Below, piece by piece: positions 1,126 to 56,640 of a stretch of 64,000 nt of DNA. Source of the stretch: Candidatus Tayloriibacteriota bacterium (GTDB lineage Bacteria > Patescibacteriota > Minisyncoccia > Phycocordibacterales > PALSA-1337); the NCBI GenBank assembly GCA_943350765.1, contig CALRAJ010000002.1:7994-71993 (forward strand), written 5' to 3'. Below the pieces are notes generated by a model. It was not told the DNA's origin. It worked only from the letters and a program-made list of their open reading frames with translations, and searched no databases. The translations under genes were made by a program, and so were the position numbers. Positions within the stretch are counted from its first letter, which is position 1. Every line of letters starts with the position of its first letter.

Positions 1126-1178
1126 GGCTCTAAAGAGCCATTTTAAACGGCTAAACACCTGTGTTTAGCCGTTTAAAA
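1126..1178. repeat. Two adjacent palindromic hairpins (GGCTCTAAAGAGCC; TTAAACGGCTAAACAC-CT-GTGTTTAGCCGTTTAA), AACGGCTAAAC palindrome family
   Basis: Perfect inverted repeats read directly from the sequence; core shared with palindromes at 50857-51020 and 53984-54017. Confidence 0.6.
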
Positions 1179-2970: not shown

Positions 2971-3064
2971 AAAGTTGATTGTGTTAAAAAATATAATAAA
3001 TGTTGTATATAGTATATCGCATTAGATTACTTGTGGGTAATGGATCTGGTTTTTATTTTACGCT

Positions 3065-3448
3065 TTGGTAAGCTCAGTACTTTCGGTACCTCCGCTACCA
3101 TTTGTGTGTACAACATGTTTAGGTTATACTTACTCTATGAATGAAGTTTTTTCAAAGAGAATAATTAGATCTATGATTGTAGCCGTGTTGTGTATTGTTG
3201 GTGGGTATGTGGGTATTTTGTTTTTGATAAATTCAAATGGTTTCCTTCCGATGATAATACTAGGGTCTTTGTTAGTTATCCTTGGTCTGGTAGGGATGGT
3301 CGCCGTGGTTGCTAAAGATGCATTGTATTTATATAAAAGAAATGTGTCTAATTACGATAATAACACAAGAAACTGGACGGCAGTATTAATTCTTATTTCA
3401 TTCACCCTCGTCTTTCTGCTTTTTAAATATGCTGGTATGTTTGATTAA
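3065..3448 (+). CDS. Small membrane protein (hypothetical; start may be internal at 3137)
   Basis: ORF with 3 predicted TM helices; no family assignment. Confidence 0.3.
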   Translation: MVSSVLSVPPLPFVCTTCLGYTYSMNEVFSKRIIRSMIVAVLCIVGGYVGILFLINSNGFLPMIILGSLLVILGLVGMVAVVAKDALYLYKRNVSNYDNNTRNWTAVLILISFTLVFLLFKYAGMFD

Positions 3449-4028: not shown

Positions 4029-4058
4029 TACCATCTACCACACAAGTACTTTTTTCCA

Positions 4059-4092
4059 ATCCCCGGAATTTTCTACTGAAAATTCCGGGGAT
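4059..4092. terminator. Stem-loop ATCCCCGGAATTTT-loop-AAAATTCCGGGGAT after the DUF805 gene
   Basis: 14-bp perfect inverted repeat; a T-run precedes rather than follows it, so terminator function is uncertain. Confidence 0.3.
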
Positions 4093-5839
4093 TACCGTTC
4101 AGTAATTTCATCAGAAAGTGGTTCTCAGGTTGTTTTGTCCACCAGAGGTGTAGTAATGAAGCCAAAAAAGAGACTTTGGAGCCCATTTCTCCCACCAGAG
4201 GCGTAGAAGTAACCCTCTAAAAGGGGGTTCGCAGGCGGGTAGCCGAGACTTCAGGAATTTTCTAGTAAGAAAATATCCGTACCCTTTTAGAGGGTTTACT
4301 TCGTAACCCTTGACTATTATAACCATTCATATATACTACTCCTACCCTAATCGAAACAGGGGTGTTCTTTGAAACTGTGCCAAAATAAGTTATGCATTAA
4401 GAACGTAGTTTAAACGAAGTCGTTTAATACGTGCAAGTCCCTGTAAAGTATTCAACAAGCATATTTTACGGGTGAGTCTAAAAAGTTTAGGAAAGTAGAA
4501 TCTTCGCAGTCGGCGCCCTTCTTTGTTGCAAGCTCCGTTCGCTTCCGCAATGTATTAGTATACATTTTGGTCGCGATACTCGCTCGCGCCTCGAAGTGCA
4601 TCCAACTACAAAGATTCTATGACACACATTTATAACAATAATTTCAAGAGCATAGACAAACTCTAATACAAAGCTTCGGCGGAGTAGTAATTATTTGAAA
4701 ATCAAAGTATAGAATATTTTTCTTTATTTTGTTCCGTTCATTTAATTTAGAGTTTGATTCTAGCTCAGGATGAACGCTGGCGGCGTGGGTAAGGCATGCA
4801 AGTCAAACGGCCCGCAAGGGCAGTGGCGAACGAGGTAGTACAAAGTAGGTAACGACCCTGGAAGTCAGGAATAACTAGTCGAAAGATTAGCTAATACTTG
4901 ATGGTCTCGCGAGAGTAAAGATTTATCGCTTCCAGATCGGCCTGCTCGATATCAGCTAGTTGGTAGGGTAATGGCCTACCAAGGCAATGACGTCTAGGGG
5001 AGCTGAGAGGCTGACCCCCACCGATGGTACTGAGATACGGACCATACACCTACGGGTGGCCGCAGTCGAGAATCTTCCGCAATGGACGCAAGTCTGACGG
5101 AGCGACGCCGCGTGATCGATGAAGTTCTTCGGAACGTAAAGATCTTTTATGAGGGAGAAAGTTTATTGATAGTACCTCAAGAATAAGGGGTTGCTAAACT
5201 CGTGCCAGCAGCAGCGGTAATACGAGTGCCCCAAGCGTTATCCGGAATTATTGGGCGTAAAGGGTGTGTAGGTGGTTTTGTTAGTCTCTTGTTAAACCTC
5301 CCGGCTCAACCGGGAAGATGCAAGGGAAACGGCATAACTAGAGGATGCGAGGGGTCTGTGGAACTCATGGTGTAGCGGTGAAATGCGTTGATATCATGGG
5401 GAACACCAAAAGCGAAGGCAGCAGACTGGAGCACTCCTGACACTGAAACACGAAAGCGTGGGTAGCGAATGGGATTAGATACCCCAGTAGTCCACGCCCT
5501 AAACGATCTTCTCTGGTTTTTCGGAGTATCGACCCTCTGAGAGACGAAGCTAACGCGTTAAGAGAAGCGCCTGGGTAGTACGACCGCAAGGTTAAAACTC
5601 AAAGAAATAGACGGGGACTTGCACAAGCGGTGGATCATGTGGTTTAATTCGACGATAAACGAAGAACCTTACCAAGATTTGAAACCTAGTTGAAGACAAG
5701 AGGAAACTTTTGTCGCCGCAAGGCAATTAGGCAGGTGATGCATGGCCGTCGTCAGTTCGTGGTTTGAATTGTTCCCTTAAGTGGGGTAACGAACGCAACC
5801 CTCGTTGCCTGTTATATATGTCAGGCGAGACTGCCCTCG

Positions 5840-5969
5840 ATTTTGTTCGGGAGAACAAAATCGAGTCGAAAGTAGAAAGTCAAAAGTACACAGTCGGATG
5901 CAAGTGCATCCACTCGGTACTCAGTACTTTCGACTTTTGACTCCGATTTCGATCGCTCGTGATCAAAAT
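5840..5969 (+). other. About 130-nt insertion in the loop of 16S helix 40 (IVS/expansion-segment type)
   Basis: Lies between GAGACTGCCCTCG and CGAGGGAGGAAGGCGAGGATGACG, where E. coli has about 7 nt. The insert is a nested hairpin (CTCGATTTTGTTC/GAACAAAATCGAG; GGATGCA-AGT-GCATCC) and its ends pair (CTCGATTTTG ... CAAAATCGAG). Confidence 0.6.
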
Positions 5970-6099
5970 CGAGGGAGGAAGGCGAGGATGACGCCAGGTC
6001 AGCATGTCCCTCTGATATCTTGGGCTACACACGTGATACAATGCCCGGTACAACAGGTTGCAATACCGCAAGGTGGAGCCAATCCTTATAAGCCGGGCC

Positions 6100-6136
<37 letters not shown>

Positions 6137-6198
6137 CCGGAATCGCTAGTAATCGCAGGTCAGCTATACTGCGGTGAATACGTTCTCAAGTCTTGTAC

Positions 6199-6615
6199 TC
6201 AAAATTAAAAGCGCCAGGCAGGTGCTGAATCTAGGTTGTTAAAATCAACCCTTTCCGAATACAATACAGGAGAGTAGTGAACGGGTAATCATTTGGTCGC
6301 GAGGCTAAGTGATGAAGGATCCTAGTAGCAAAAAGCAGCCCATTCAAAAAAGAGGGATACGACCCATATGGTGAGTTATGGGGAAGTATCGCAAATAACC
6401 TCGAATGGGATGCATGGAATAGAATCAGTACTGACCCTTGGGAGATCTCCTGATATGAAAAACAATCGAAGTATCAGTAGAAGTCAGCTGCGTCGTAGTA
6501 CCCATTTTTTATGATGGGGAAGGACAAAACCGATAGTGTTAAAACTATTGGACTCGCGTAGTGCGGGAAATCCGCTCGCTACGTGGGAACGCAAAATGTT
6601 GTTTCATTATTGCAA
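6199..6615 (+). other. About 415-nt ORF-less insertion in the 16S decoding-centre region (putative self-splicing intron)
   Basis: Interrupts the universally conserved CTTGTAC|ACACCGCCCGTCA block (E. coli about 1397-1400). No ORF over 60 aa; must be removed for a functional 16S. Boundaries are approximate. Confidence 0.5.
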
Positions 6616-6938
6616 TCCGCCCGTCAACTCAAGGGAGTTGGGAATACCCGAAATCTCTGCCTAGCAGGGCCTAAGGTAAGCTCAATGACAGGGAGTAAGT
6701 CGTAACAAGGCACGGGTAGCGGAAGCTGCTCGTGGATTATTTCAATTTGAACACGGTGTACAGTTTCTTCGGAATCTGTATTACCTTAAATGGTCTTTTG
6801 TCATTATTTTGGTGATAGGGTAATGGTTCTGCAACCTCAAATGCGAACCCTCAGCCATGAGAGAGGAATGGCGCAGGTCGGTATCCTCTATAGAGATACT
6901 GACCGGTGAACGGAACAAAATAAAGAATGATATTAAAG

Positions 6939-6967: not shown

Positions 6968-6997
6968 TTGGTTAAATCAATATGAATTATACTAGGT

Positions 6998-7143
6998 ACC
7001 CCAAATTACAAAATGCCTTTCTCGGCATATCTTTTAAAAGGCACGGATAAATTTCTGCTGAAATTTTCCTCAAGTCTCGACTACCCGTCTTGCGAAGTCC
7101 TTTTAAAAGATACACCTGCGACAGCATTTCGTAATTTGGGGTA
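6998..7143. mobile_element. MITE-like palindromic element, copy 1 (TIR CCCCAAATTACAAAATGC ... GCATTTCGTAATTTGGGG)
   Basis: About 145-bp element with 16-18-bp terminal inverted repeats and an internally self-complementary core (GGCATATCTTTTAAAAGG / CCTTTTAAAAGATACACC). Homologous copies at 9316, 32702, 38892 and 52181. Confidence 0.7.
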
Positions 7144-7326
7144 GACAGAGTAATGCGGTTGCGAATATTTTTTAAATTAAGATAACTTCCGCTATTGTTT
7201 TTCTGACATTTTTTTGCTATAGTCTTTTTGTTGTCTGGGTAGTGATAGGTTGTAGATTGCTGGCCCCGAGAAGATTACTCCTCGGGACGCTGCATTTTGC
7301 AGCCAAACCTGGGGTTTGGGCAAAAT

Positions 7327-7400: not shown

Positions 7401-7500
7401 CTTAAAAGAACTAATTTGTGACTGTTTGGTACGGATTTTATAACTAAATTAAATCTCATACCTAGTATGGATCGTTCTCGCTAGTCGTCTAATCTAGATC

Positions 7501-7539
7501 GATGGCTCACTGGTTTTACTTTTAAACCAGTGAGCCATC
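7501..7539. repeat. Hairpin repeat, GATGGCTCACTG family (GATGGCTCACTGGTTT-TACTTTT-AAACCAGTGAGCCATC)
   Basis: Perfect 16-bp stem. Paralogous copies at 40398-40440 and 44061-44103 differ by a compensatory G/C swap (tgGttt/aaaCca versus tgCttt/aaaGca). Confidence 0.6.
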
Positions 7540-7594
7540 AACATAGATTGTGTAGGGAGGTTACTTTCAGAGGCTTTTGAAATAGGCTTCTACT

Positions 7595-7687
7595 GAGCCA
7601 TTTGAACGGCTCAACAGCCCTGTGCTTGTAACGAGTTTTACTAAACTCGTTATCTTCGTCACCTTGCTCCTTGAGCTGTTCAAATTA
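7595..7687. repeat. Composite palindromic element, GAGCCATTTGAACGGCTCAAC family, copy 1
   Basis: Left arm GAGCCATTTGAACGGCTCAAC, internal hairpin TAACGAGTTTT-ACT-AAACTCGTTA, conserved TCTTCGTCACCTTGCTCCTTGAGCTGTTCAAAT right arm. Same architecture at 14893-15000. Confidence 0.6.
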
Positions 7688-9229: not shown

Positions 9230-9251
9230 TTTGGAAAATTGAAAAAGAAAA

Positions 9252-9285
9252 CCCCGCGGCGTACTCGCCGCGGGGTTTTCTTTTG
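9252..9285. terminator. Rho-independent terminator after pyk (CCCCGCGGCG-TACT-CGCCGCGGGG plus TTTTCTTTT)
   Basis: 10-bp GC stem, TACT loop and T-run 23 nt after the pyk stop. Confidence 0.65.
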
Positions 9286-9315
9286 TTGTCTAAAATATGG
9301 TATTATTATCTTTAA

Positions 9316-9457
9316 TTCGAATTACAAAATACTTTTCTTGGCATACCTTTTAAAGAGCACGAGTATTTTCTTGCTAGAAAATCTCTCAGTCTCGGCTACC
9401 CGCCTTGCGAAGTCTCTTTAAAAGATACGCCTACGACAGTATTTTGTAATTCTGGGT
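9316..9457. mobile_element. MITE-like palindromic element, copy 2
   Basis: CGAATTACAAAATAC ... GTATTTTGTAATTCTGGG ends and the same internal core as copy 1; fills the pyk-murD spacer. The annotated 60-aa ORF 9239-9421 lies inside it. Confidence 0.7.
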
Positions 9458-9463
9458 ATTCAA

Positions 9464-11463: not shown

Positions 11464-11547
11464 TTTGATAGCCATGGCCAGACCAAGCTTGTTTTATCTG
11501 CCATGCAGAGAAACAAGCCTTTTTAATTAAGAATTAGGTGGGGTAAA

Positions 11548-11569
11548 CCCGCGCCGTACTCGGCGCGGG
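11548..11569. terminator. GC hairpin CCCGCGCCG-TACT-CGGCGCGGG (terminator-like; T-run 8 nt downstream)
   Basis: Same TACT loop and near-identical stem as the pyk terminator at 9252, with a swapped GGC/GCC segment that preserves pairing. Confidence 0.35.
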
Positions 11570-13732: not shown

Positions 13733-14881
13733 TTGATTTGTATGACTGAATCGGCAAAAAAAGTATTGATTTTTTCTATCGCCTATTACCCACATTTTAT
13801 TGGTGGTGCGGAAGTGGCGGTAAAGGAGATTACAGATAGATTAGTTGATGATTTTGAATTTCACATGATTACCTTGGGTGCAAAAGGGGATAAAAGTGAT
13901 GAAAGAATCAGCAATGTCTTTGTTCATCGTGTGGGGAGTGTTTCAACTATTTCAAAATATCTATTTCCATTTATAGGCTTTTTTAAAGCCGTTGATTTAC
14001 ACAAAAAACACCACTTTCAGATAACTTGGTCTATTATGGCAAATTATGCTGGTTTTGCTGGGCTATTTTTTAAATATTTGAAGCCAGAAGTAACATCCGT
14101 CTTAACCCTTCAGGAGGGTGATCCGATATTGTATATCAAAAAACGAGTTGGTGTCCTGTACCCTTTGTTTAAAAAGATATTTACCAAAGCAGATCGTATC
14201 CATGCTATTTCAAATTATCTTGCTGATTGGGCAAGAGATATGGGAGCTAAAGGTCGTGTTGATGTTGTGCCAAATGGAGTGGATATTTCACTTTTTTCAA
14301 AAGCAATTTCGGACGATGAGAAAAATTCACTTGCTCGTGAATTGGGAAAAAAGACCGAAGATATTTTCCTGATCACCACTTCTCGCTTGGTTATTAAAAA
14401 TGGAGTGGGGGATATTATAAAATCACTCCAGTATCTACCCACCAATGTAAAATTATTGATAGTAGGTAATGGAGTGCTAGAAGATACCTTAAAGGCTTCC
14501 GTAGATGCCCACAAGCTCTCAGGTAGGGTTTTGTTTGTTGGTTTTATACATCATGCCGATTTACCTAAATATCTGGCTATAAGCGATATATTCGTAAGAC
14601 CAAGCCTGTCTGAGGGGATGGGTAACTCATTTATTGAGGCAATGTCGGCAGGTATACCCGTAGTCGCTACTCCAGTAGGTGGAATAGTTGATTTTTTGGT
14701 TGATCGCGAAACAGGTCTTTTTTGTCAGGTTTCGGACCCAAAAAGTATTGCGGAATGCGTGAAATTACTTTTGTCTGATAAGATGCTATCTACTCGACTG
14801 GTCGAAAATGCTCAAAAAATGGTTTTAAATAATTATGATTGGTCTAGGATCGCTATTTTGATGCGTGAAGTGATCCGATAG
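13733..14881 (+). CDS. Glycosyltransferase family 4 (GT-B)
   Basis: C-terminal GT4 signature SLSEGMGNSFIEAMSAGIPVVATPVGG...VDRETG. Confidence 0.8.
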   Translation: MICMTESAKKVLIFSIAYYPHFIGGAEVAVKEITDRLVDDFEFHMITLGAKGDKSDERISNVFVHRVGSVSTISKYLFPFIGFFKAVDLHKKHHFQITWSIMANYAGFAGLFFKYLKPEVTSVLTLQEGDPILYIKKRVGVLYPLFKKIFTKADRIHAISNYLADWARDMGAKGRVDVVPNGVDISLFSKAISDDEKNSLARELGKKTEDIFLITTSRLVIKNGVGDIIKSLQYLPTNVKLLIVGNGVLEDTLKASVDAHKLSGRVLFVGFIHHADLPKYLAISDIFVRPSLSEGMGNSFIEAMSAGIPVVATPVGGIVDFLVDRETGLFCQVSDPKSIAECVKLLLSDKMLSTRLVENAQKMVLNNYDWSRIAILMREVIR

Positions 14882-14892
14882 TAGCCTTATTT

Positions 14893-15000
14893 ATAGCCAT
14901 TTGAACGGCTCAACATCTAGTTTGTACAGAGTCTTGCTAGACTCTGTATCTTCGTCGCCTTCGCTCCTTGAGCCGTTCAAATGGCTCTGCACAGAGCCAT
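14893..15000. repeat. Composite palindromic element, GAGCCATTTGAACGGCTCAAC family, copy 2
   Basis: AGCCATTTGAACGGCTCAAC ... TACAGAGTCT-TGC-TAGACTCTGTA ... TCTTCGTCGCCTTCGCTCCTTGAGCCGTTCAAATGGCT followed by GGCTCTG-CA-CAGAGCC. Confidence 0.6.
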
Positions 15001-31843: not shown

Positions 31844-32701
31844 ATGGTCTCTATGCTATTCTCAGTAATATATATGAATAATTTATTTTCACTCAAAGGC
31901 AAAAAAGTCGTACTGACCGGAGCGGCAGGCTTTTTCGGGACATACTTTGCCGAGGCACTTCTCTCGGCAGAAGCAGATAAAGTTTTCTGTGTTGATGTGA
32001 GTGAGCCAGGACTCGCTGATCTAAAAAAGCGCCTTGGCGCAAGTTCTTCAAAACAAGTCGAGTATGTTGTACTAGATCAAGGCGATCAAAAAATGGTTGC
32101 AAAAGTATTTGGCAAGCTGGCTGAGCATGGTGTGGATGTCCTCATCAACAATTCTTTTGTCTTTGGCGCACCGACTGGCTTTGCTCCAGCTCGAGGCCGT
32201 ATCGAAGACGCTACCTTTGAACAATTACAAAAATCTTTTGAATCTGGAATTTATTGGTCTATACAGGCTACACAGATTTTTGCCGAGGCAAGTAAAAAAA
32301 GCGACAAGCCATTGTCTGTGATCAACCTCGGCTCAATGTATTCGGTAGTGGTACCAAGTCCGACACTCTACGAAGGTTTTGATTATTACAACCCGCCCGG
32401 CTACAGCATGGCAAAGACCGGTCTGGTCGCGTTTACAAAATATACTGCCGCGTGGATGGGGCCACTCGTGCGTGCGAACATTCTCTGCCCAGGTGCTATT
32501 CCAAATGATGAAAAGAAATCGGCGAACTCTGAACAAAATAAAAACGATGCGTTTCGACAGAGAATGATTGATCGCACGGCACTCAAGCGTCTCGGACACC
32601 CAAATGATCTCGTAGGGACGGTGGTTTTCCTAGCTTCAGATGCTTCCAGCTATATTACGGGTCAAATGATCGTGGTGGATGGGGGATGGACTATTGTGTA
32701 A
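31844..32701 (+). CDS. Short-chain dehydrogenase/reductase (SDR); true start possibly 31874
   Basis: TGAAGFFG glycine motif; catalytic YxxxK (YSMAK). Confidence 0.8.
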   Translation: MVSMLFSVIYMNNLFSLKGKKVVLTGAAGFFGTYFAEALLSAEADKVFCVDVSEPGLADLKKRLGASSSKQVEYVVLDQGDQKMVAKVFGKLAEHGVDVLINNSFVFGAPTGFAPARGRIEDATFEQLQKSFESGIYWSIQATQIFAEASKKSDKPLSVINLGSMYSVVVPSPTLYEGFDYYNPPGYSMAKTGLVAFTKYTAAWMGPLVRANILCPGAIPNDEKKSANSEQNKNDAFRQRMIDRTALKRLGHPNDLVGTVVFLASDASSYITGQMIVVDGGWTIV

Positions 32702-32878
32702 ATAGCCCAAATTAGGAAACTCTTTCTCGGCGTATCTTTCTAGGAGTACGAATAAATTTCTGGTGAAATTTATCTCAGGTCTCGACTCCCGTCCTGCGCC
32801 GTCTACAGGAACACATCATCTACCGATGTGAAAGCCCCCTATAAAGATGTGTCTTCGACGAATTTCCTAATTTGGGCT
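32702..32878. mobile_element. MITE-like element, copy 3 (variant; TIR TAGCCCAAATTAGGAAA ... TTTCCTAATTTGGGCTA)
   Basis: Same TIR core and internal CTTTCTCGGCGTATC / CCGATGTGAAAG segments as the remnant at 52132. AT-rich insert inside the GC-rich island. Confidence 0.6.
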
Positions 32879-33029
32879 ATTTGCCTTGGTTGTTTACTGT
32901 GGATTATTGTGTATATGACATGTGGTCATTCTAATACCTTGAGTGCATCCAAGCTATTGAACCATTACCCGGTGGTATTGACTTTATTTGCAAATGGGTG
33001 TATAATAGGTTTTGGTCTGTTGGCGGTAG

Positions 33030-38628: not shown

Positions 38629-38645
38629 ATTTTAGGACAGGTAGT

Positions 38646-38687
38646 GTAATTCCCCCGATTTTTGTACTCAAAAATCGGGGGAATTAC
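38646..38687. terminator. Perfect 18-bp hairpin GTAATTCCCCCGATTTTT-GTACTC-AAAAATCGGGGGAATTAC
   Basis: Immediately after the ligase gene; no clean T-run. Confidence 0.4.
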
Positions 38688-38693
38688 ATGCTA

Positions 38694-38891: not shown

Positions 38892-39103
38892 CCCAAATCT
38901 CTTTCTCGGCACGACCTTTTTCATGCACGAGTATTTCTATGGTAAGAAATCTCTCAAATCTCGCGTGCCATGCCGTAGCCTTTGGCGAAGGCAGGGCTGC
39001 CCATGCACATGAAACTTGCTAGTTTCAGTATCTTCCTCGCCTCCGCTCGTCGACTTCCGAACCCTCTTAAAAAGACATACCTTCGACGAATTTTGCAATT
39101 TTA
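38892..39103. mobile_element. MITE-like element, diverged/expanded copy 5
   Basis: Shares CACGAGTATTTCT-TGGTAAGAAATCTCTCAA and the 3' end CTTAAAAAGACATACCTTCGACGAATTTTGCAATTTT with the other copies; carries an about 70-nt internal insertion. Confidence 0.45.
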
Positions 39104-39295: not shown

Positions 39296-40363
39296 ATGAA
39301 AGATTTAGTAATACAAGAAAACATTGTGCTTCGAGATTATACGACTTTTAAAATCGGGGGAAACGCCCGATATTTTTGTGTAATAAAAAACACAGAAGAT
39401 CTAAAATCGGCACGCGTTTTTGCCGAACAAAAACGCGTGCCGATTTTTATCCTCGGTGGCGGTTCAAACATTTTGATATCAGATGACGGTTTTGATGGTC
39501 TAGTCATCAAAAACGAAATCAAGGGTATACAGTATGAAAAACAGCCAGACGGTAAAACCCTAACGACAGTCGGTGCAGGAGAAGTCTGGGACTTTTTTGT
39601 CTCGGATACCATTGCTCACGACCTAGGTGGACTCGAAAACCTCTCTGGTATCCCTGGCACAGTCGGTGCCTCCCCAGTGCAAAATATCGGTGCTTATGGA
39701 GCAGAAGTCAAAGATACTATTGTTTCGGTTACAGCCATCGATCATATCACTGGCGAGGAGAAAATTTTCTCACATGACGAATGTCAGTTTAGTTATCGTC
39801 ATAGTTTCTTTAAAACTTACGCAGGTAAAAAATGGGTCATCACTTATGTGCAGTTTTTACTCGATTCTCTCAAGCCTATTTCAATAGAGTATAAAGACCT
39901 CGTTACTTATTTTGTACCCAAGAACTACACTACAATTTCAAGGCAGAATGTGCGTGATGCTGTGCTCGCTATCCGTCATGCAAAGTTACCTGAATTAAAA
40001 AGCCTAGGCACCGCTGGATCATTTTTTAAAAATGTTACCATCTCAAAACAGCAGTATGAAAATCTAAAAATAAAGTGGCCAAATCTACCAGGCTTCCCAG
40101 TATTGACTTCCGACTCCCGACTTTTGACTACCAAAATCCCTCTCGCTTGGATTCTGGACAATATCTGTGGCTTCAAAGGTATGCGAGTCGGGGAAGTAGG
40201 TGTTTATAAAAATCAGGCACTGGTTTTAATCAATTACGGTCAGGGTACCGCAGTAGATATTGCTAATCTAGCAAAATCTATGCAGGAAAAAGTGTATGAA
40301 ATGACAGGTATTACTATCGAGCCAGAGGTGGAGTATATTTTTCCGGAAAAGTTGTTAAAATAG
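39296..40363 (+). CDS. murB: UDP-N-acetylenolpyruvoylglucosamine reductase
   Basis: FAD-binding FKIGGNARYF..., GGGSNIL; MurB C-terminal domain. Start refined from 39209 to the conserved MKDLVIQENI. Confidence 0.85.
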   Translation: MKDLVIQENIVLRDYTTFKIGGNARYFCVIKNTEDLKSARVFAEQKRVPIFILGGGSNILISDDGFDGLVIKNEIKGIQYEKQPDGKTLTTVGAGEVWDFFVSDTIAHDLGGLENLSGIPGTVGASPVQNIGAYGAEVKDTIVSVTAIDHITGEEKIFSHDECQFSYRHSFFKTYAGKKWVITYVQFLLDSLKPISIEYKDLVTYFVPKNYTTISRQNVRDAVLAIRHAKLPELKSLGTAGSFFKNVTISKQQYENLKIKWPNLPGFPVLTSDSRLLTTKIPLAWILDNICGFKGMRVGEVGVYKNQALVLINYGQGTAVDIANLAKSMQEKVYEMTGITIEPEVEYIFPEKLLK

Positions 40364-40377
40364 CCCAAAATATCTTC

Positions 40378-40442
40378 AACGGCTCACTGGTCTGTAGTCG
40401 ATGGCTCACTGCTTTTTAATACAAAGCAGTGAGCCATCGACC
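40378..40442. repeat. GATGGCTCACTG-family repeat, left boundary of the R-M island (half-site plus 18-bp hairpin)
   Basis: CAACGGCTCACTGGTCTGTAGTCGATGGCTCACTGCTTT-TTAATAC-AAAGCAGTGAGCCATCGACC; near-identical to 44018-44105. Confidence 0.65.
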
Positions 40443-40570
40443 TAAAATATAGCTATAATAAAGGGTTCAATTAGTATTGGTAGGTATATAGGTAAGCGAT
40501 GTACAAGACTATATATTTCTACAAGCAAAAATGATAGAATGGATATATGTGAATGATTTAAAAAAACACT

Positions 40571-41842
40571 ATGAGTAAAGATATAATTACACTATTAAAT
40601 AAAACAAAGATTGATCACTCATGGTCTTTTTCTGATAAGACAAGAAAGGACACGGCGTATATTACGCATGGTTATCATCGCTACCCAGCAAAGTTTATTC
40701 CTCAAATAGTCTCTCGTTTGGCAGAAAAATACACCCGAGAAGGAGATTTTATCGTTGATCCATTTGGTGGGTGTGGAACGACACTCGTTGAATCAAAAGT
40801 TATGGGGCGACCATCAATTGCTGTTGATATTAACCCTGTTGCAGTTTTGATAACAAAAGCAAAAATCACCCCAATTAACCCCGATAAAATTGAGAAAGAA
40901 TTTGCAACACTTCAGAAGAGATTAGAAACTTATAACGAAGATACAAAAGTCAAAGCACATGAACATGAACGGATAGATTATTGGTTCAAACCCGAAAATA
41001 AAAGGAAGCTCGCCTTTATCTTTACCGAAATTTCAAAAATTAAAGATCAGGATGTTCAAGACTTTTTCTTTTGTGGATTTTCAAATATTCTCAAAAATTG
41101 TTCAATATGGTTACAAAAAAGCAATAAGCCGACGAGAGATTTTGAAAAGAAACCGTCAGATCCAATTAAAACTTTTTTTAAGCAAATAAAAATGATGTTG
41201 CGTGGCAACACACGACTATTTGAATTATTATCAGAGAAAGGTTATTTGAAAATTCCAAGCAAGGTAGTTTGTACGGACGCAAGGACAATTCCAGCAAAAG
41301 ACAATAGTATTAGCTTGATCGTTACCTCTCCGCCATATGTTACCTCATACGAATATGCCGATTTACACCAACTTACTGCATTATGGCTAGAATATACAAA
41401 GGATTTGAGTGATTTCAGAAAGCGTTTTATTGGCACTTCATATCACAGTAAGAAAGATTTGATACTCAATAGTTCAATCGCAGAAAGTATCCGAAAAGAA
41501 TTGCTGGAAATAGACAAAAAGACTGCCGAAGAAGTCTCAACATACTTCAGCGAAATGAATCAGGTTTTTGTTGAGATGGAAAGGATACTCAAGAAAGGAG
41601 GAAAAACGTGTATTGTTGTCGGGAACACGAGCCTGAAAGGTGTTAAAATACTAAACGCCGAGGTTTTTGTTGAACAATTACAAAATTTAGGACTGAAAGT
41701 CACGGATGTTATCAAAAGGGAAATACCTTCAAAAAATTTACCCTCAGTGAGAGATAAAAAAACAGGCAAGTTTGCAGCGATAACGGATAAAAATAAAGTT
41801 TCCGCATATCCAACAGAATATATATTAGTAATGCAAAAATAA
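40571..41842 (+). CDS. DNA methyltransferase (N4-cytosine/N6-adenine family, SPPY type)
   Basis: HRYPAKFIPQIV...GDFIVDPFGGCGTT (SAM-binding motifs X-I), catalytic SPPY (LIVTSPPYVTSYEYAD). Confidence 0.8.
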   Translation: MSKDIITLLNKTKIDHSWSFSDKTRKDTAYITHGYHRYPAKFIPQIVSRLAEKYTREGDFIVDPFGGCGTTLVESKVMGRPSIAVDINPVAVLITKAKITPINPDKIEKEFATLQKRLETYNEDTKVKAHEHERIDYWFKPENKRKLAFIFTEISKIKDQDVQDFFFCGFSNILKNCSIWLQKSNKPTRDFEKKPSDPIKTFFKQIKMMLRGNTRLFELLSEKGYLKIPSKVVCTDARTIPAKDNSISLIVTSPPYVTSYEYADLHQLTALWLEYTKDLSDFRKRFIGTSYHSKKDLILNSSIAESIRKELLEIDKKTAEEVSTYFSEMNQVFVEMERILKKGGKTCIVVGNTSLKGVKILNAEVFVEQLQNLGLKVTDVIKREIPSKNLPSVRDKKTGKFAAITDKNKVSAYPTEYILVMQK

Positions 41843-41846
41843 AAAT

Positions 41847-42530
41847 ATGACCAAACAAGATATTGTTAATTTATATGAGAGGTATAAGAAATTACATGGA
41901 AATAATGCCTTCAAACATATTTCTGCAATTTTAATTGAGGCAAAAGGACTTCACAACAAAGATTTTTTGAAAAATCCAACCCCAAAAGGTGATCATGAGC
42001 AATCATGGAAGGGTTTCAAAGGTAGTGCTTTAGAGACATTAATTGATCATGTCTTAAAAGAAGAAGTAAATAGTTTGGGGTTAAATATTGTATCAGGAAA
42101 AAAGTTTGAAAAAACTAAGCCAGAGAATTTATCGATAGAATTGCAGACTGTTAAGAGAAATCTTTCTATTGATTTTGGTGAATTTGGTTTTCATATACCA
42201 GATGTTGATCTAGTAATATATAATCCAAAAACCTTCAAGGTCGTTGCTGTTTTATCAAGCAAGTCGACTTTGCGAGAAAGAATAGCCCAATCAGGTTATT
42301 GGAATATAAAAATTAAGAACTACGATTTAACAAAACATATTAAGGTGTTTTTTGTAAGCCCAGATGAAGACGGTAATTTTTCTCTCGGAAGAAATCTTGG
42401 AAAGAGTAGAGCGATTGTGGAAACAGATCTTGATGGAGCATATGTTATGACAGAGCAATCCGTTAGAGAAAGTGAGAAAGTCAAAACATTTGATAAATTT
42501 ATTGATGATCTTAAAAAACTTTTGAAATAA
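41847..42530 (+). CDS. Hypothetical protein, candidate restriction endonuclease by context
   Basis: 227 aa between two DNA MTases; possible PD..D/ExK-like residues (IPDVDLVIY...SSK) but not convincing. Confidence 0.3.
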   Translation: MTKQDIVNLYERYKKLHGNNAFKHISAILIEAKGLHNKDFLKNPTPKGDHEQSWKGFKGSALETLIDHVLKEEVNSLGLNIVSGKKFEKTKPENLSIELQTVKRNLSIDFGEFGFHIPDVDLVIYNPKTFKVVAVLSSKSTLRERIAQSGYWNIKIKNYDLTKHIKVFFVSPDEDGNFSLGRNLGKSRAIVETDLDGAYVMTEQSVRESEKVKTFDKFIDDLKKLLK

Positions 42531-42534
42531 AACT

Positions 42535-42933
42535 ATGGAACAATTACTTTTACAACTTGGGTTAGGAATTGCTTCAAACACGATGTATGATTTTTTGAAG
42601 GATTTTTTCACTAAAAATTATAAACCTGATAGATTACAATTACAAAATAAGCTAGCTTCTTTTCTTGATGTTCAAAACGCCAACATAATAGCCGATAAAA
42701 TTATTACTTTTTTGGCTCAGAATGGAGATATAAGAATTAATGGAACGAGTATTTACGCTAATGATTCAATTTCTATGTCTTCCACAAAAAACACAAAATT
42801 TACTTTTGGAAATAATAGTTCCAGTACAACGAAAAATACAAAAATAGAAGTTGGTAATGGTGCTTTCATTCAAGGACAAGGCTGTGCAGGAATAAAACAA
42901 AATGACGATGGCAGTATTAATCTTTTTACTTAA
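42535..42933 (+). CDS. Hypothetical small protein with Asn/Ser/Thr-rich C-terminus
   Basis: 132-aa ORF tightly packed (4-bp spacers) inside the R-M island. Confidence 0.35.
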   Translation: MEQLLLQLGLGIASNTMYDFLKDFFTKNYKPDRLQLQNKLASFLDVQNANIIADKIITFLAQNGDIRINGTSIYANDSISMSSTKNTKFTFGNNSSSTTKNTKIEVGNGAFIQGQGCAGIKQNDDGSINLFT

Positions 42934-42936
42934 ATT

Positions 42937-43605
42937 ATGGAAATTGAATCAACAACACTTTGGGATTTTCCAAGACAGAATTATGGAGATACCCCACACG
43001 GAAACAATAAATATAATGGCGTTACCCCTGCGGCAGTAATTTGGAATTTGCTACAACGATACACCAAAGAGGGCGACTTGGTCGTGGATCCGATGTGCGG
43101 AAGTGGAACGACTATCGATGTTGCCAATGAATTGAAGCGTAAGGTTATTGGGTATGATCTTAATGTAACAAGACCAGAAATAATCAAAAATGATTCTCGT
43201 AAAATTCCGCTTGCTGACAATTCCGTTGATTTTATTTTCATTGATTCGCCGTATTCGGACAATATAAACTATTCCGATAATAAGGAGTGTATAGGAAAAA
43301 TATCTTGCGAGAAAACGGAATTTTATGATGAGCTAGAAAAAACCGCTAGTGAAATCGCAAGGATTTTGAAGCCCGGCAAAGCGATTGGTTGGGTAATCGC
43401 TGATCAATGGGTAAAGAAGAAATTTACGCCTGTTGGTTTTTTAATGTGGCAGAGATTAGAAAAATATTTTGAAACAGTCGATATGATTTGCCTCACTCGT
43501 CATAATCAAACATCAAATACGGGAATTTGGCACGAACGAGCAAGACAGTATAACTTTTATCTCAGAGGATTCAAGTATCTATTCATAATGAGAAAAGTTA
43601 AGTAA
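42937..43605 (+). CDS. DNA methyltransferase (short N4/N6 family, second MTase of the island)
   Basis: PAAVIWNLLQRYTKEGDLVVDPMCGSGTT (motifs X-I) and FIFIDSPYSD (motif IV variant); paralogous N-terminus to the MTase at 40571. Confidence 0.7.
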   Translation: MEIESTTLWDFPRQNYGDTPHGNNKYNGVTPAAVIWNLLQRYTKEGDLVVDPMCGSGTTIDVANELKRKVIGYDLNVTRPEIIKNDSRKIPLADNSVDFIFIDSPYSDNINYSDNKECIGKISCEKTEFYDELEKTASEIARILKPGKAIGWVIADQWVKKKFTPVGFLMWQRLEKYFETVDMICLTRHNQTSNTGIWHERARQYNFYLRGFKYLFIMRKVK

Positions 43606-43668
43606 AATAGAAATAGGCATAAAACTATTTAGATGTACCACGCACGCATCGTCTAGTACTAAAAAATC

Positions 43669-43677
43669 TGGTATAAT
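43669..43677 (+). promoter_or_regulatory. Extended -10 element TGGTATAAT, 9 nt upstream of ATG 43687
   Basis: TGnTATAAT; no Shine-Dalgarno; predicts a leaderless or near-leaderless mRNA. Confidence 0.4.
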
Positions 43678-43686
43678 GTCTATACT

Positions 43687-43992
43687 ATGAACTCAACAAA
43701 ATTAATTTTAGTACTGGTGTTGCTAGGGGTACTGATTTGGCTGTATCGAAACAGGTCTAATGTCTGGCGACCAAATAGGGAACGGGTGTGGGCAAAATCG
43801 GAGCATAAGCATCAAGTGATGGAGCTGTTTTTATTGCCAGGTATGCGAGTGAAAAATGACGATGTACAGAGGCTGACTGGTGTTTCTGACGCGACTGCCA
43901 CAAGGTATCTAGATGAACTCGAAAAAGAAGGACTAATACGGCAGGTCGGGGTAGTAGGTGGGTATGTGTATTATGAGAAAATAGGGAAATAG
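43687..43992 (+). CDS. Membrane-anchored winged-helix DNA-binding protein
   Basis: N-terminal TM (LILVLVLLGVLIWLY) plus C-terminal wHTH-like RLTGVSDATATRYLDELEKEGLIRQVG. Confidence 0.45.
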   Translation: MNSTKLILVLVLLGVLIWLYRNRSNVWRPNRERVWAKSEHKHQVMELFLLPGMRVKNDDVQRLTGVSDATATRYLDELEKEGLIRQVGVVGGYVYYEKIGK

Positions 43993-44017
43993 CCCGAAGC
44001 AGAGCCATTTTATGAAA

Positions 44018-44105
44018 CGATGGCTCACTGGTCTGTAGTCGATGGCCCAGTGGTGTTTGGTCGATGGCTCACTGCTTTATAATACAAAGCAGTGAGCCAT
44101 CGACC
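44018..44105. repeat. GATGGCTCACTG-family repeat, right boundary of the R-M island (two half-sites plus 18-bp hairpin)
   Basis: CGATGGCTCACTGGTCTGTAGTCGATGGC...TCGATGGCTCACTGCTTT-ATAATAC-AAAGCAGTGAGCCATCGACC. Confidence 0.65.
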
Positions 44106-44272
44106 TCGTCTGGACTAAATTAAGAAGCTTTTTAGGTATCGGACAACTGATTAATTTTTAAAACAAAGTTTAGTCTCGTTCTATCCCCACGGCAAGCCGT
44201 CGGGGTATTCTCCACAATTAAAATAAAAATCCCCACGAGTGTGAGGAGTCAGGCTGTCGGATTGAGGAGGAA

Positions 44273-50767: not shown

Positions 50768-50856
50768 ATGTAAAAAAATGGCTTGATCTATAGTTAGTAA
50801 GATTTGTCGGTTGTTCAAGACCTTACCCTAAAGCTAGGTTATATAATCACAAAAAT

Positions 50857-51020
50857 TCAAAGGCTAAACGCTAGCGTTTAGCCTTTGAATTTTTGACCCA
50901 ATAGCCGATTTTGAGCCTAATTTTGCCAAACCGTGGCTAAAAATCATTCATACTTCCTTTTTGAACATCTAGCTCTGTATAGCCACGCTAAACGGCTAAA
51001 CTCATGAGTTTAGCCGTTTA
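50857..51020. repeat. Two perfect 34-bp palindromes of the AACGGCTAAAC family
   Basis: TTCAAAGGCTAAACGCTAGCGTTTAGCCTTTGAA (50857-50890) and CTAAACGGCTAAACTCATGAGTTTAGCCGTTTAG (50987-51020), both with palindromic 4-bp centres. Confidence 0.65.
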
Positions 51021-51132
51021 GTGGGTGCGGGATGGGGTTTGGTAGGGTAAAATCCCCCTCGACATACTCTCCGCGGGGGTCATTCCTTTCTCCAGGACTA
51101 CCCATTTTTCGCTAGTTTTTTAGCCTAAAATC

Positions 51133-52131: not shown

Positions 52132-52324
52132 GGAATTAGAAAATTCTTTCTCGGTCTGCCGATGTGAAAGTCCTTTAAAACCCCAAATTACGAAATACCT
52201 TTCTTGGCATATCTTTTAAAAGGCACGAGTATTTCTTTGGTAAGAAATCTCTCAAGTCTCAGCTACCCGCTTCCGAAGTCCTTTTAAAAGATACGCCTGC
52301 GACGGTATTCTGTAATTTGGGGTT
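52132..52324. mobile_element. MITE-like element: internally deleted remnant (52132-52182) abutting full copy 4 (52181-52324)
   Basis: Remnant GGAATTAGAAAATTCTTTCTCGG...CCGATGTGAAAGTCCTTTAAAA equals the ends of the copy-3 variant joined by a deletion. The full copy starts CCCCAAATTACGAAATACC and ends GTATTCTGTAATTTGGGG. Confidence 0.65.
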
Positions 52325-52376
52325 TTAAAACACATATTCTCAACAGATTTTCTCATTTCAGTCAGTATATGCTAAA

Positions 52377-53834: not shown

Positions 53835-53983
53835 TTTTTGGTGGGGAAATGCAAGTCAAGACAGCAGACTTAAGACAGTAGATCAAAAAAATCGAAAAAA
53901 TAATCCCTCTAAAATCGCTACTACAATTTTAGATGGATTGAGCATTTTGAGCAAAATAGCCTCAGGTAGAGCCGTGATTTAGC

Positions 53984-54017
53984 TCAAAGGCTCAACGGTG
54001 TACCGTTGAGCCTTTGA
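53984..54017. repeat. Palindrome TCAAAGGCTCAACGG-TGTA-CCGTTGAGCCTTTGA (AACGGCTCAAC family)
   Basis: 15-16-bp perfect stem with GTAC centre. Confidence 0.55.
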
Positions 54018-54038
54018 CCATGTTTTCCTAAGACCATA

Positions 54039-54070
54039 CATCGATTATACGCATGTGCGTATAATCGATG
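54039..54070. promoter_or_regulatory. Perfect palindrome CATCGATTATACGCA-TG-TGCGTATAATCGATG about 80 nt upstream of gap
   Basis: 15-bp arms; extendable to about 20 bp (CCATACATCGATTATACGCA / TGCGTATAATCGATGTATGG). Candidate operator or terminator. Confidence 0.4.
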
Positions 54071-54149
54071 TATGGCTATGGTCGCGATAGGGTACTTTTT
54101 ATTTTTCTGGTATACTGAATATTACTTACTCATAGATTTAAAAGATAAA

Positions 54150-55731: not shown

Positions 55732-56181
55732 ATGAAAATCTACTTTGCCACCGATCACGCAGGGTTTGAACTCAAAAATGTACTCGTCGAGTATGTGAAG
55801 AGTCTTGGTTTTGAAGTGGAAGATTTCGGAGCAAAAAGTTTTGACAAGGAGGATGATTATCCAAATTTTATTAAACTAGCAGGGCAAGCGGTTTCGGCTG
55901 ATCCGGTAAATTCAAAAGCGATTGTACTGGGTGGCTCAGGGCAGGGTGAAGCTATAGTCTCAAACCGTTTTCACGGTGTACGAGCAGTGGTGTATTATGG
56001 TGGCAATTTAGAAACTATAAAACTTTCTCGAGAGCATAACGATGCCAACATTCTCTCTCTCGGTGCACGATTTTTGAATGTGGATGAAGCCAGGGAAGCT
56101 GTAAAACTTTGGTTGGACACGCCTTTTACTAGCGATGAGCGCCACTTGCGAAGAATTCAAAAAATTGAACAAATAAATTGA
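55732..56181 (+). CDS. rpiB: Ribose-5-phosphate isomerase B
   Basis: MKIYFATDHAGFELKN...; RpiB/LacAB fold motifs. Confidence 0.85.
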   Translation: MKIYFATDHAGFELKNVLVEYVKSLGFEVEDFGAKSFDKEDDYPNFIKLAGQAVSADPVNSKAIVLGGSGQGEAIVSNRFHGVRAVVYYGGNLETIKLSREHNDANILSLGARFLNVDEAREAVKLWLDTPFTSDERHLRRIQKIEQIN

Positions 56182-56190
56182 GTTAAAATT

Positions 56191-56615
56191 CTCCCTTTGC
56201 AAAGGGAGTACCCGTAGGGGGAGGGATTTGTATGAAATTAGTCTACGGTCAAAATTTAAAACCTCTTGCTCAAAACCTCAGGAAGTCAGGTAATCTTTCG
56301 GAGGTTTTGCTCTGGAATGAGATAAAATCGAAAAAACTGGGTGTTCAATTTTTAAGACAGAAACCTATAGATAAATACATCGTTGATTTTTATTGTAATG
56401 AACTCAGTCTTGCTATAGAGATAGATGGTGTGAGTCACGATGTTAAGGTTGATGCCGACACCAGAAGGCAAAATGTGTTAGAATCTAAGGGTGTACGATT
56501 TATTAGGTTCAGTGATTCAGATGTTAAGTGTAATCTAGAAAGTGTAGTAAGGGAAATCAAGGAATTTATCGAGAGTAAAAATCCCTCCCTTTCAGGTGCT
56601 CCCTTTAAAAAGGGA
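56191..56615. mobile_element. DUF559 endonuclease cassette bounded by about 39-bp imperfect terminal inverted repeats
   Basis: Left CTCCCTTTGCAAAGGGAGTACCCGTAGGGGGAGGGATTT; right AAATCCCTCCCTTTCAGGTGCTCCCTTTAAAAAGGGAG. Each end is a hairpin plus an 11-bp GGGAGGGATTT / AAATCCCTCCC inverted repeat. Confidence 0.5.
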
Positions 56616-56621
56616 GAATAA
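56232..56621 (+). CDS. DUF559 (Vsr/MutH-like fold) endonuclease-domain protein
   Basis: YIVDFYCNELSLAIEIDGVSHD, the diagnostic DUF559 block; the C-terminus reads through the right TIR. Confidence 0.7.
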   Translation: MKLVYGQNLKPLAQNLRKSGNLSEVLLWNEIKSKKLGVQFLRQKPIDKYIVDFYCNELSLAIEIDGVSHDVKVDADTRRQNVLESKGVRFIRFSDSDVKCNLESVVREIKEFIESKNPSLSGAPFKKGE

Positions 56622-56640
56622 TAACTAATAACTATCAACC

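Follow-up and report, generated by a model that had tools for sequence, protein, structure and literature searches.

Nested palindromic repeats between the genes of a Parcubacteria (CPR) genome, with features of REP/REPIN- and MITE-type elements

Bacterial miniature inverted-repeat transposable elements (MITEs), such as Correia/CREE of Neisseria, RUP of the pneumococcus, and Nezha of cyanobacteria, consist of terminal inverted repeats of ~20 nt that may or may not enclose a short internal segment. They are intergenic, are cotranscribed with their neighbors, form long hairpins, and exist in an "empty" form made of the inverted repeats only, beside longer forms. The genomes of the candidate phyla radiation (CPR, or Patescibacteria) are tiny, gene dense, and usually described as repeat poor. 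Doublets of repetitive extragenic palindromic sequences (REPs), called REPINs, are described mainly from Proteobacteria (bioRxiv 10.1101/2022.05.22.493013; PMC3116915). Here, we describe a superfamily of palindromic elements with a GGCTMAAC core in a 64,000-nt stretch of a Candidatus Tayloriibacteriota genome (contig CALRAJ010000002.1, positions 7,994 to 71,993), hereafter called the window, including two composite elements with a module enclosed between palindrome arms. We lean toward the view that these dispersed palindromes are nonautonomous repeats, akin to REP/REPIN elements or miniature transposons, whose expansion took place in a single Parcubacteria (CPR) lineage.

The copies are dispersed, strictly intergenic, lineage specific, and nested, and we read them as mobile repeats because near-identical multimodule copies lie at dispersed intergenic places, expanded in one lineage, and occur within one another. 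Contigs of the same strain (99.99 to 100% identity) lengthened the window to 81.9 kb, which holds 16 family members (~1 per 5 kb), i.e., 13 GGCTMAAC palindromes and 3 hairpins of a third hairpin family, GATGGCTCACTG, named B. All 16 fall in the 11.6% of the DNA outside genes, which bears out an earlier sequence-only reading of the window that had called the elements all intergenic, and the density of the 7-mer GGCTMAM in spacers is 12-fold that in genes. The window contains 14 perfect hairpins with stems of 13 bp or more, versus 0 in each of 20 dinucleotide shuffles. The neighboring genes are housekeeping genes (pyk, murD, obg, gatB, lepA, and similar). In independent assemblies, contigs stop at positions 7470, 7594, and ~44088 of the window, at or beside repeats, as is expected of repeats that are multicopy genome-wide. 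Assemblers are known to have difficulty with palindromes and repeats, and these very breaks could raise the suspicion that the palindromes are assembly artifacts; however, the identical sequence of this strain was recovered in several assemblies of the European Nucleotide Archive (ENA), in an NCBI metagenome-assembled genome (MAG), and in a Logan assembly of a separate run, so that an artifact can be practically excluded.

The two composites had been placed at 7595-7687 and 14893-15000 by the sequence-only reading, and both were found there with slightly shorter extents. Together with the module that they contain (module X), they are laid out as follows.

7595-7685, plus strand: composite 1; left arm 7595-7615 GAGCCATTTGAACGGCTCAAC, center remnant AGCCCTGT at 7616-7623, right arm 7671-7685.
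7624-7671, plus strand: module X of composite 1; hairpin 7629-7652 TAACGAGTTT-TACT-AAACTCGTTA, tail 7653-7670.
14895-14986, plus strand: composite 2; outer 19-bp stem 14895-14913 / 14968-14986, with arms identical to those of the empty L1 palindrome.
14921-14967, plus strand: module X of composite 2; hairpin 14925-14948 TACAGAGTCT-TGCT-AGACTCTGTA, C/U-rich tail 14949-14967 TCTTCGTCGCCTTCGCTCC.
14983-14998, unstranded: S-box mini-palindrome GGCTCTGCACAGAGCC, adjoining composite 2; the S-box type also stands beside other members, on either side.
38969-39050, plus strand: 82-nt insertion with the third module X copy; hairpin ~39009-39028, tail 39029-39049.

The composites are homologous to each other, with 80% identity across ~110 nt. 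In both, an outer stem of 15 to 19 bp (GCCATTTGAACGGCTCAAC / TTGAGCCGTTCAAATGGC) encloses an inner 10-bp hairpin and a conserved 19-nt C/U-rich tail, TCTTCGTCRCCTT(C)GCTCC, and the pattern AACGGCTMAAC-N35-65-TTKAGCYGTTY has 2 matches in the window versus 0.00 expected. Composite 2 begins 14 nt past the stop codon of a glycosyltransferase gene (13733-14881), while the site of composite 1 is the tRNA-Ile-to-pyk spacer, 415 nt long here versus 47 to 96 nt in relatives. The empty form is a perfect 46-nt palindrome, GGCCATTTGAACGGCTCAAC-AGGCCT-GTTGAGCCGTTCAAATGGCC, located 7.8 kb upstream of the window. Since this insert-free palindrome has exactly the arms of the composites, a composite is the 46-nt palindrome with the ~48-nt module X inserted at its center. 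Module X, i.e., a 10-bp hairpin with a T(A/G)CT loop and the conserved tail TCTTCNTCRCCTYCGCTC, is present in only three copies, the third being carried by the 82-nt insertion in the apical region of an unrelated ~150-nt repeat (family A, described below), whose orthologous copies in the relatives L076 and L078 are without the insertion. The loop (T-A/G-C-T) and the tail are constant in all three copies, each on the transcribed strand, whereas 5 of the 10 stem pairs are altered on both sides, with 93% of cells paired. Hence, the internal hairpins of the two composites, described previously as unrelated, are in fact homologous, with a common loop and compensatory differences.

Such a conserved tail and covarying inner stem, together with the very stable fold of the composites as RNA compared with shuffles (z = -7.2 for 14895-14986 and -8.9 for 7595-7685), could be those of a small structured RNA gene or cis-regulator, whose long outer stem would present the single-stranded C/U-rich tail. 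We consider this highly improbable: there are just 2 or 3 copies and relatives are without them, the outer stem is the repeat's own palindrome and exists without the insert, and no promoter or terminator is evident at the composite. The elements have no Rfam family match at the gathering threshold or at permissive E values, with only subthreshold noise of the microRNA type. The 3' end of the 16S rRNA lacks CCUCC, so that a mimic of the anti-Shine-Dalgarno sequence would make no sense; such mimicry by the tail was ruled out on the 3' end itself (GGATTATTTCA). Folded as DNA, composite 2 gives a z of -7.1. A small open reading frame (ORF) on the minus strand of the composite was also discarded, its start codon not being conserved and a 1-nt indel breaking the frame. 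As a side observation, a TACT tetraloop (or TGCT, or AGTA on the other strand) is common to hairpins with unrelated stems, mostly terminator-like (4058-4093, 9243-9284, ~11547-11568, 38645-38688, and 7629-7652; in the extension, -7702 to -7673 and 72004-72043), and may reflect a lineage-specific loop preference.

The four short palindromes singled out by the sequence-only reading were all located in the window. They are listed here with the B hairpins.

1126-1180, unstranded: S-box GGCTCTAAAGAGCC and L2 palindrome; palindrome 1139-1180 with 20-bp arms, CATTTTAAACGGCTAAAC-ACCTGT-GTTTAGCCGTTTAAAATG; between convergent genes.
7499-7545, unstranded: B-type hairpin GATGGCTCACTGG...CCAGTGAGCCATC, 50 nt upstream of composite 1.
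40376-40445, plus strand: B element; half-site CAACGGCTCACTGG, 7-nt spacer, 45-nt hairpin; left edge of a restriction-modification island, just past murB.
44017-44107, plus strand: B element; two direct half-sites at a 22-nt period, 47-nt hairpin; right edge of the same island.
50850-50895, unstranded: L4 palindrome, perfect 46-mer CAAAAATTCAAAGGCTAAACGCT/AGCGTTTAGCCTTTGAATTTTTG.
50972-51023, unstranded: S-box-like sequence and L2 palindrome; palindrome 50986-51023 with 18 pairs and 1 mismatch.
53958-54019, unstranded: S-box-like sequence AGCCTCAGGTAGAGCC and L3 palindrome; palindrome 53982-54019 with 17 pairs and 1 mismatch.

The uniform length of 34 bp initially attributed to the short palindromes did not hold, the four measuring 38 to 46 nt and the family 28 to 47 nt, and a palindromic center is found in two of them (GCTAGC and TCATGA), the two others having a central mismatch. 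These elements share a recurring unit (unit U), the 21-nt GAGCCATTTGAACGGCTCAAC or a variant of it. The unit by itself forms a GAGCC/GGCTC mini-hairpin and occurs at 1135, 7595, 14894, and 44002 as well as in the extension; the 21-mer GTTGAGCCGTTCAAATGGCT(C) is present at five loci. The palindromes are made of two inverted units U around a center of 5 to 8 nt, with a total length of 28 to 47 nt, 13 to 23 paired bases, and 0 or 1 mismatch. Subfamilies vary in the lower stem (GAAC-, AAAC-, CAAA-, TTCAAA-, CATC-), always on both arms, and frequent flanks are the S-box (GGCTCT-N4-AGAGCC), on either side, and extra direct half-units 7 to 14 nt upstream. Copies at unrelated loci can be close to each other, as for 1127-1175 and 50972-51020 (82% identity). 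Judged by the lead that they have in common with the palindromes, GAGCCATTT...ACG(AT)GGCTCA, the B hairpins are members of the same superfamily. Binding sites for a dimeric protein, one of the options raised for the palindromes, are not favored: the arms of the subfamilies differ yet stay complementary, the center can be anything from 5 to 8 nt long, and stems of up to 23 bp occur, all of which argue for a hairpin rather than a fixed double-stranded operator. Close to the L3 palindrome, a perfect palindrome with 20-bp arms, CCATACATCGATTATACGCATGTGCGTATAATCGATGTATGG (54034-54075), has an unrelated sequence and ends at the gap start codon (54072).

We compared the window with contigs of relatives at ~80% DNA identity, in which the gene orders 16S - tRNA-Ile - pyk and wzy - murB - secA - MYG1 - obg - gatB - gap are kept. 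The relatives are without elements in the tRNA-Ile-pyk, MYG1-obg, and gatB-gap spacers, and they have far fewer hairpins overall, just a few of the classical terminator type. L078 carries a single family member, directly after murB, at the spot where the window has a B hairpin and L076 a decayed B hairpin, and the half-site AACGGCTCACTG precedes the hairpin in all three lineages. As the relatives lack nearly all copies, the family expanded in this lineage; as the post-murB hairpin and its half-site are found in three lineages, the family predates the species in which it expanded.

A scan of GTDB genomes with the composite pattern returned 53 stretches, of which ~48 are single chance matches, about the number expected. 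Genuine matches were confined to Parcubacteria CG10_38_31 and the MAG "MEGAHIT-group-3.28," which share the AACGGCTCAA core in direct and inverted arrays by housekeeping genes. In the former, where the elements follow ssb, serS, and topA, direct copies with a 21-nt period precede a palindrome; in the latter, the same arms flank a 37-nt GC-rich insert. The sequence-only reading had held that a lack of further copies in relatives would speak against a family: close relatives do mostly lack it, but one relative and these two uncultured genomes carry it. A scan of JGI metagenomes with the left arm and tail gave four matches, all to one coding sequence of an organism with 55% GC, which is put down to chance, and viral scans gave 7 matches, all of them ordinary hairpin-plus-T-tract terminators of unrelated phages. 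Relatives without the big palindromes have, at orthologous positions and once in each intergenic region, the motif (T)AGAGCCAYnTTT, which often takes the form GGCTCT-N4-AGAGCC (L076 8725-8760 and 11665-11700; L078 11580-11610; L065 2757-2790; window 1126-1139 and 53958-53973). The family may have arisen from this motif as its seed, or the motif may be a regulatory site of the whole genus.

Among the options of the sequence-only reading, that of REP-like elements is the one that we favor, on the near-identical dispersed copies, their strictly intergenic location, their absence from the orthologous spacers of relatives, and the inverted pairs of a 21-nt mini-hairpin unit. As for target sites of an IS200/IS605-type transposase, a further option of that reading, the 82 kb encode no Y1/HUH transposase, recombinase, or IS. 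In the model that we propose, an enzyme whose gene lies in another part of the genome, either RAYT (REP-associated tyrosine transposase)/IS200-like or another transposase, would copy the repeats by way of a single-stranded hairpin. The exposed apex of existing hairpins would be the preferred landing site. The effect on the host would be incidental, with long stems in 3' or 5' untranslated regions that could affect mRNA stability or processing.

Several points weigh against this model. No transposase, RAYT, recombinase, HUH protein, or parent insertion sequence (IS) is encoded in the 82 kb (Pfam), and no RAYT (Y1 transposase) gene was found beside the elements in CG10_38_31. No consistent target-site duplication is visible at the compared copy boundaries, which are blurred by flanking half-sites, or when the insertion is set against empty sites. 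The genome-wide copy number is an extrapolation from 82 kb of one genome, and relatives at ~80% identity are too diverged for palindrome empty sites to be mapped base by base. Moreover, the position of the post-murB hairpin is kept while its sequence turns over, which looks like conserved function or in situ evolution. Lastly, a palindrome inside murB is kept perfect with different sequences in different lineages, which argues for a palindrome-perfecting force in the genus that is independent of transposition.

The latter palindrome lies at 39403-39447 in the murB coding sequence (39296-40363), with 20-bp arms and the codons K S A R V F A E Q K R V P I F. In L078 (2793-2831), the same codons (E A R V F A R Q K H A P L) form a different and equally perfect palindrome with 18-bp arms, and in a third relative the palindrome is only imperfect. 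Its compensatory changes are partly nonsynonymous, resulting in amino acid replacements. An in-frame palindromic insertion, as with the Rickettsia palindromic elements (RPEs), was ruled out because the length is unchanged. The perfecting force could be selection for the hairpin or template-switch correction, and it may explain perfect arms and covariation without any RNA function.

This opens a more general alternative, in which the perfect palindromy and compensatory changes of the elements would be the product of a mutational process (intrastrand template switching or quasipalindrome correction in a repair-poor CPR genome) working on sequence already in place, their resemblance being partly a convergence on terminator-like words. 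Beside murB, it would fit the simple palindromes, of which 3 of 11 are perfect through the center and the others have only 1 or 2 central mismatches, the long spacer-less palindromes of unrelated sequence that other uncultured genomes with the core also hold, and the overlap of the right arm of 53982-54019 with a TTTGACC motif found in relatives. Such a process would cover the perfecting of copies but not their dispersal, and it leaves unexplained the near-identical multimodule copies of 40 to 110 nt at unrelated loci as well as the clean 82-nt insertion, so that we hold it to be an unlikely account of the elements.

The kept position after murB also bears on another alternative, in which the hairpins would be functional transcript elements (terminators, mRNA 3'-end stabilizers, or RNase III sites), kept or replaced in situ, with the GGCTMAAC apex recognized by a lineage-specific RNA-binding or termination factor. 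While 12 of the 16 members lie between codirectional genes, usually 11 to 190 nt past the stop codon, several intergenic regions hold 2 or 3 such hairpins and two members lie in a divergent promoter region. The phage matches to AAAGGCTCAAC...GTTGAGCCTTTTTT are ordinary terminators; in the family, however, a T-tract follows the stem in just 1 of 16 members, though the genome does have classical terminators with a GC stem and a T-tract (e.g., 9243-9284). A scan for canonical Rho-independent terminators likewise passed only 53984-54017, the other 15 having 1 to 6 T in the 12 nt of 3' flank. The hairpin preceded by AACGGCTCACTG is retained after murB in three lineages despite sequence change, and the elements of CG10_38_31 follow ssb, serS, and topA, but relatives manage without hairpins at the same gene junctions. 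The stems do covary; their centers, on the other hand, tend to be palindromic, which is not required for an RNA loop. We judge a transcript function to be unlikely as the explanation of the family.

Between murB and secA, an island (40446-44016) encodes an N6/N4 methylase, a BsaWI-like endonuclease, a 132-amino-acid ORF, a second methylase, and a winged helix-turn-helix (wHTH) protein. This 3.6-kb island is bracketed by the B elements 40376-40445 and 44017-44107, which are direct repeats with 88% identity, and in L076 and L078 murB is directly followed by secA, with no island. Homologues of the endonuclease with 70 to 80% identity bear names from Deltaproteobacteria, Elusimicrobia, Patescibacteria, and archaea. 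The same restriction-modification cassette is present in another Patescibacterium without such flanks, which rules out the palindromes as a component of the cassette; thus, the hairpin was part of the target site and was duplicated upon insertion. The borders of the island, a single case, hint at hairpins as insertion hot spots. Elsewhere in the window, an ORF with a DUF559 domain (Vsr-like endonuclease; 56232-56621) lies between 49-nt inverted repeats (56181-56229 / 56578-56626) that are 76% complementary, the second of which overlaps the 3' end of the gene.

The palindromes could also be recombination sites, in which two inverted binding sites of 11 to 13 bp around a 6- to 8-bp core, with accessory direct half-sites, would serve a host-encoded recombinase and act as landing pads for DNA capture. 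The AACGGCTCAAC-N6-GTTGAGCCGTT geometry is similar to that of core sites such as lox, FRT, or dif, direct half-sites recur at a period of 21 to 22 nt, module X sits at the center of two palindromes, and the island is absent from relatives while being flanked by the direct B copies. Yet with 16 active sites in every 82 kb the chromosome would be scrambled, whereas its gene order is conserved with relatives; the arms vary among subfamilies, no recombinase is encoded in the 82 kb, and the cassette found elsewhere does without the flanks. This makes site-specific recombination quite improbable. A broader proposal, which we regard as doubtful, is that palindromes are hairpin landing pads in CPR genomes, the extruded apex being the preferred entry point for modules and gene cassettes. 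The cases in point are module X at two palindrome centers and at the family-A apex, another insert at that apex in 32700-32882, and the 3.6-kb island.

Family A is a ~150-nt repeat with long outer stems, an inner hairpin, and the conserved single-stranded motifs CTTTCTCGGCATATCTTTT, GCACGAGTA, CTCAAGTCTCRGCTACCCG, and AAAAGATACGCCTGCGAC. Seven copies, all on the gene strand, were found in the 82 kb.

6986-7154, 9314-9463, 32700-32882, 38895-39101, and 52174-52329: family A copies in the window.
L073 16145-16280 and L070 ~2985-3110: family A copies on these two contigs.

The repeat is found at orthologous spots in relatives and is nevertheless polymorphic, the copy at 9314-9463 being a clean insertion with respect to L062, and other insertions tend to enter at its apex (copies at 32700 and 38895). 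RNAalifold on 8 copies showed compensatory changes in 21 of 36 pairs, and Rfam gave no match to family A, which may be a structured RNA or a larger MITE.

The 16S rRNA gene (4742-6773) is interrupted near its 3' end by an insertion of ~300 nt (6253-6552) that includes a group-II D1-D4-like Rfam match (6447-6525, 39.6 bits); in the relative L057, the insert at this position is longer and contains a LAGLIDADG ORF. A 28-nt inverted repeat forming a processing stem (4713-4740 / 6907-6934) brackets the 16S unit, and as only tRNA-Ile follows 16S, with neither tRNA-Ala nor 23S, the rRNA genes are unlinked. Together with homologues of pyruvate kinase and GatB, which bear Parcubacteria, Paceibacteria, or Patescibacteria names, the 16S insertion and the lack of 23S past tRNA-Ile identify the host as a CPR bacterium. 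Past the conserved helix (~6735-6773; L065 1-60), the 16S 3' end reads ...GCTGCTCGTGGATTATTTCA and is devoid of the CCUCC anti-Shine-Dalgarno sequence; no GGAGG was seen upstream of gene starts among the few starts read.

At about one palindromic element per 5 kb, with nesting, CPR genomes can host expanding selfish repeats. The repeats explain break points of the metagenome assemblies of this lineage and can serve as strain-tracking markers. If hairpins were indeed insertion hot spots or recognition sites of a conserved factor, they would point to a new DNA-handling enzyme in a phylum not yet amenable to genetics. If they were landing pads, the conserved AACGGCTCAA hairpin of distant Parcubacteria would mark a lineage-wide system of hairpin-targeted insertion or recombination.

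Among known systems, DNA-uptake sequences (DUS) and uptake signal sequences (USS) were rejected as a candidate because, unlike in these, GGCTMAAC is absent from the protein-coding DNA of the window and GGCTMAM is ~12-fold sparser in genes. Arrays of the TIGR type, associated with Tas proteins, have been reported in parasitic bacteria and phages, with repeats of 8 to 12 nt, spacers of 9 nt, and usually 5 to 15 units (PMC12045711). The 12-nt repeats of CG10_38_31, which are 9 nt apart, resemble them superficially, but with 2 or 3 units, a single repeat type, spacers that recur between loci (gcagaatct / gcagaagct, TCTGTAG), and neither UG...CCA box motifs nor a Tas gene with a Nop domain in the vicinity, this assignment was discarded. 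There is some likeness to integron attC sites, as GCTCAAC...GTTGAGC fits the R-box consensus RYYYAAC / GTTRRRY, the form is that of a hairpin, and a composite measures ~90 nt. However, the boxes are at the stem apex, by the loop, and not at the base, an L box, an unpaired central spacer, and extrahelical bases are all missing, the neighbors are housekeeping genes and not a cassette array, and no IntI was found in the 82 kb. As in BOX elements of Streptococcus pneumoniae (boxA-boxB-boxC), modules (S-box, unit U, and module X) are combined in varying order and number into stable folds; unlike them, the sequences are not related to BOX, whose modules are direct and not palindromic doublets.

The terminal inverted repeats with arms of 13 to 23 nt (~19 nt in the L1 subfamily and the composites), and the empty inverted-repeat form alongside longer composites, are shared with MITEs, as are the intergenic location, the cotranscription with neighbors, and the long hairpins. 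Contrary to what is usual for MITEs, no consistent target-site duplication was seen at the blurred copy boundaries, no parent IS whose ends match was found in the 82 kb, and the simple members, at 28 to 47 nt, are shorter than typical. The comparison with REP/REPIN-RAYT systems and Escherichia coli bacterial interspersed mosaic elements (BIMEs) rests on a short (~20- to 35-nt), imperfectly palindromic unit (here of 21 nt) and its inverted pairing into a longer hairpin. As with REP/REPIN, the elements have lineage-specific variants and occur as singlets and tandem arrays beside doublets. REP/REPIN elements are also extragenic and numerous and lack a target-site duplication; here, all 16 members in the 82 kb are extragenic, at a density that would amount to many copies if it held genome-wide, and no consistent duplication was seen at the blurred copy boundaries. 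They differ in that no RAYT gene, which is typically single copy and flanked by the repeats, was seen within the 82 kb searched and in that the arms are perfect or nearly so, often palindromic through the center. The GTAG-type 5' tetranucleotide of REPs was not found, the conserved flank here being GAGCCATTT or the S-box. The host also sets them apart from known REPINs, since it is a CPR bacterium of roughly the 1-Mb class. The finding, descriptive as it stands, is thus that of a familiar kind of element in an unusual host.

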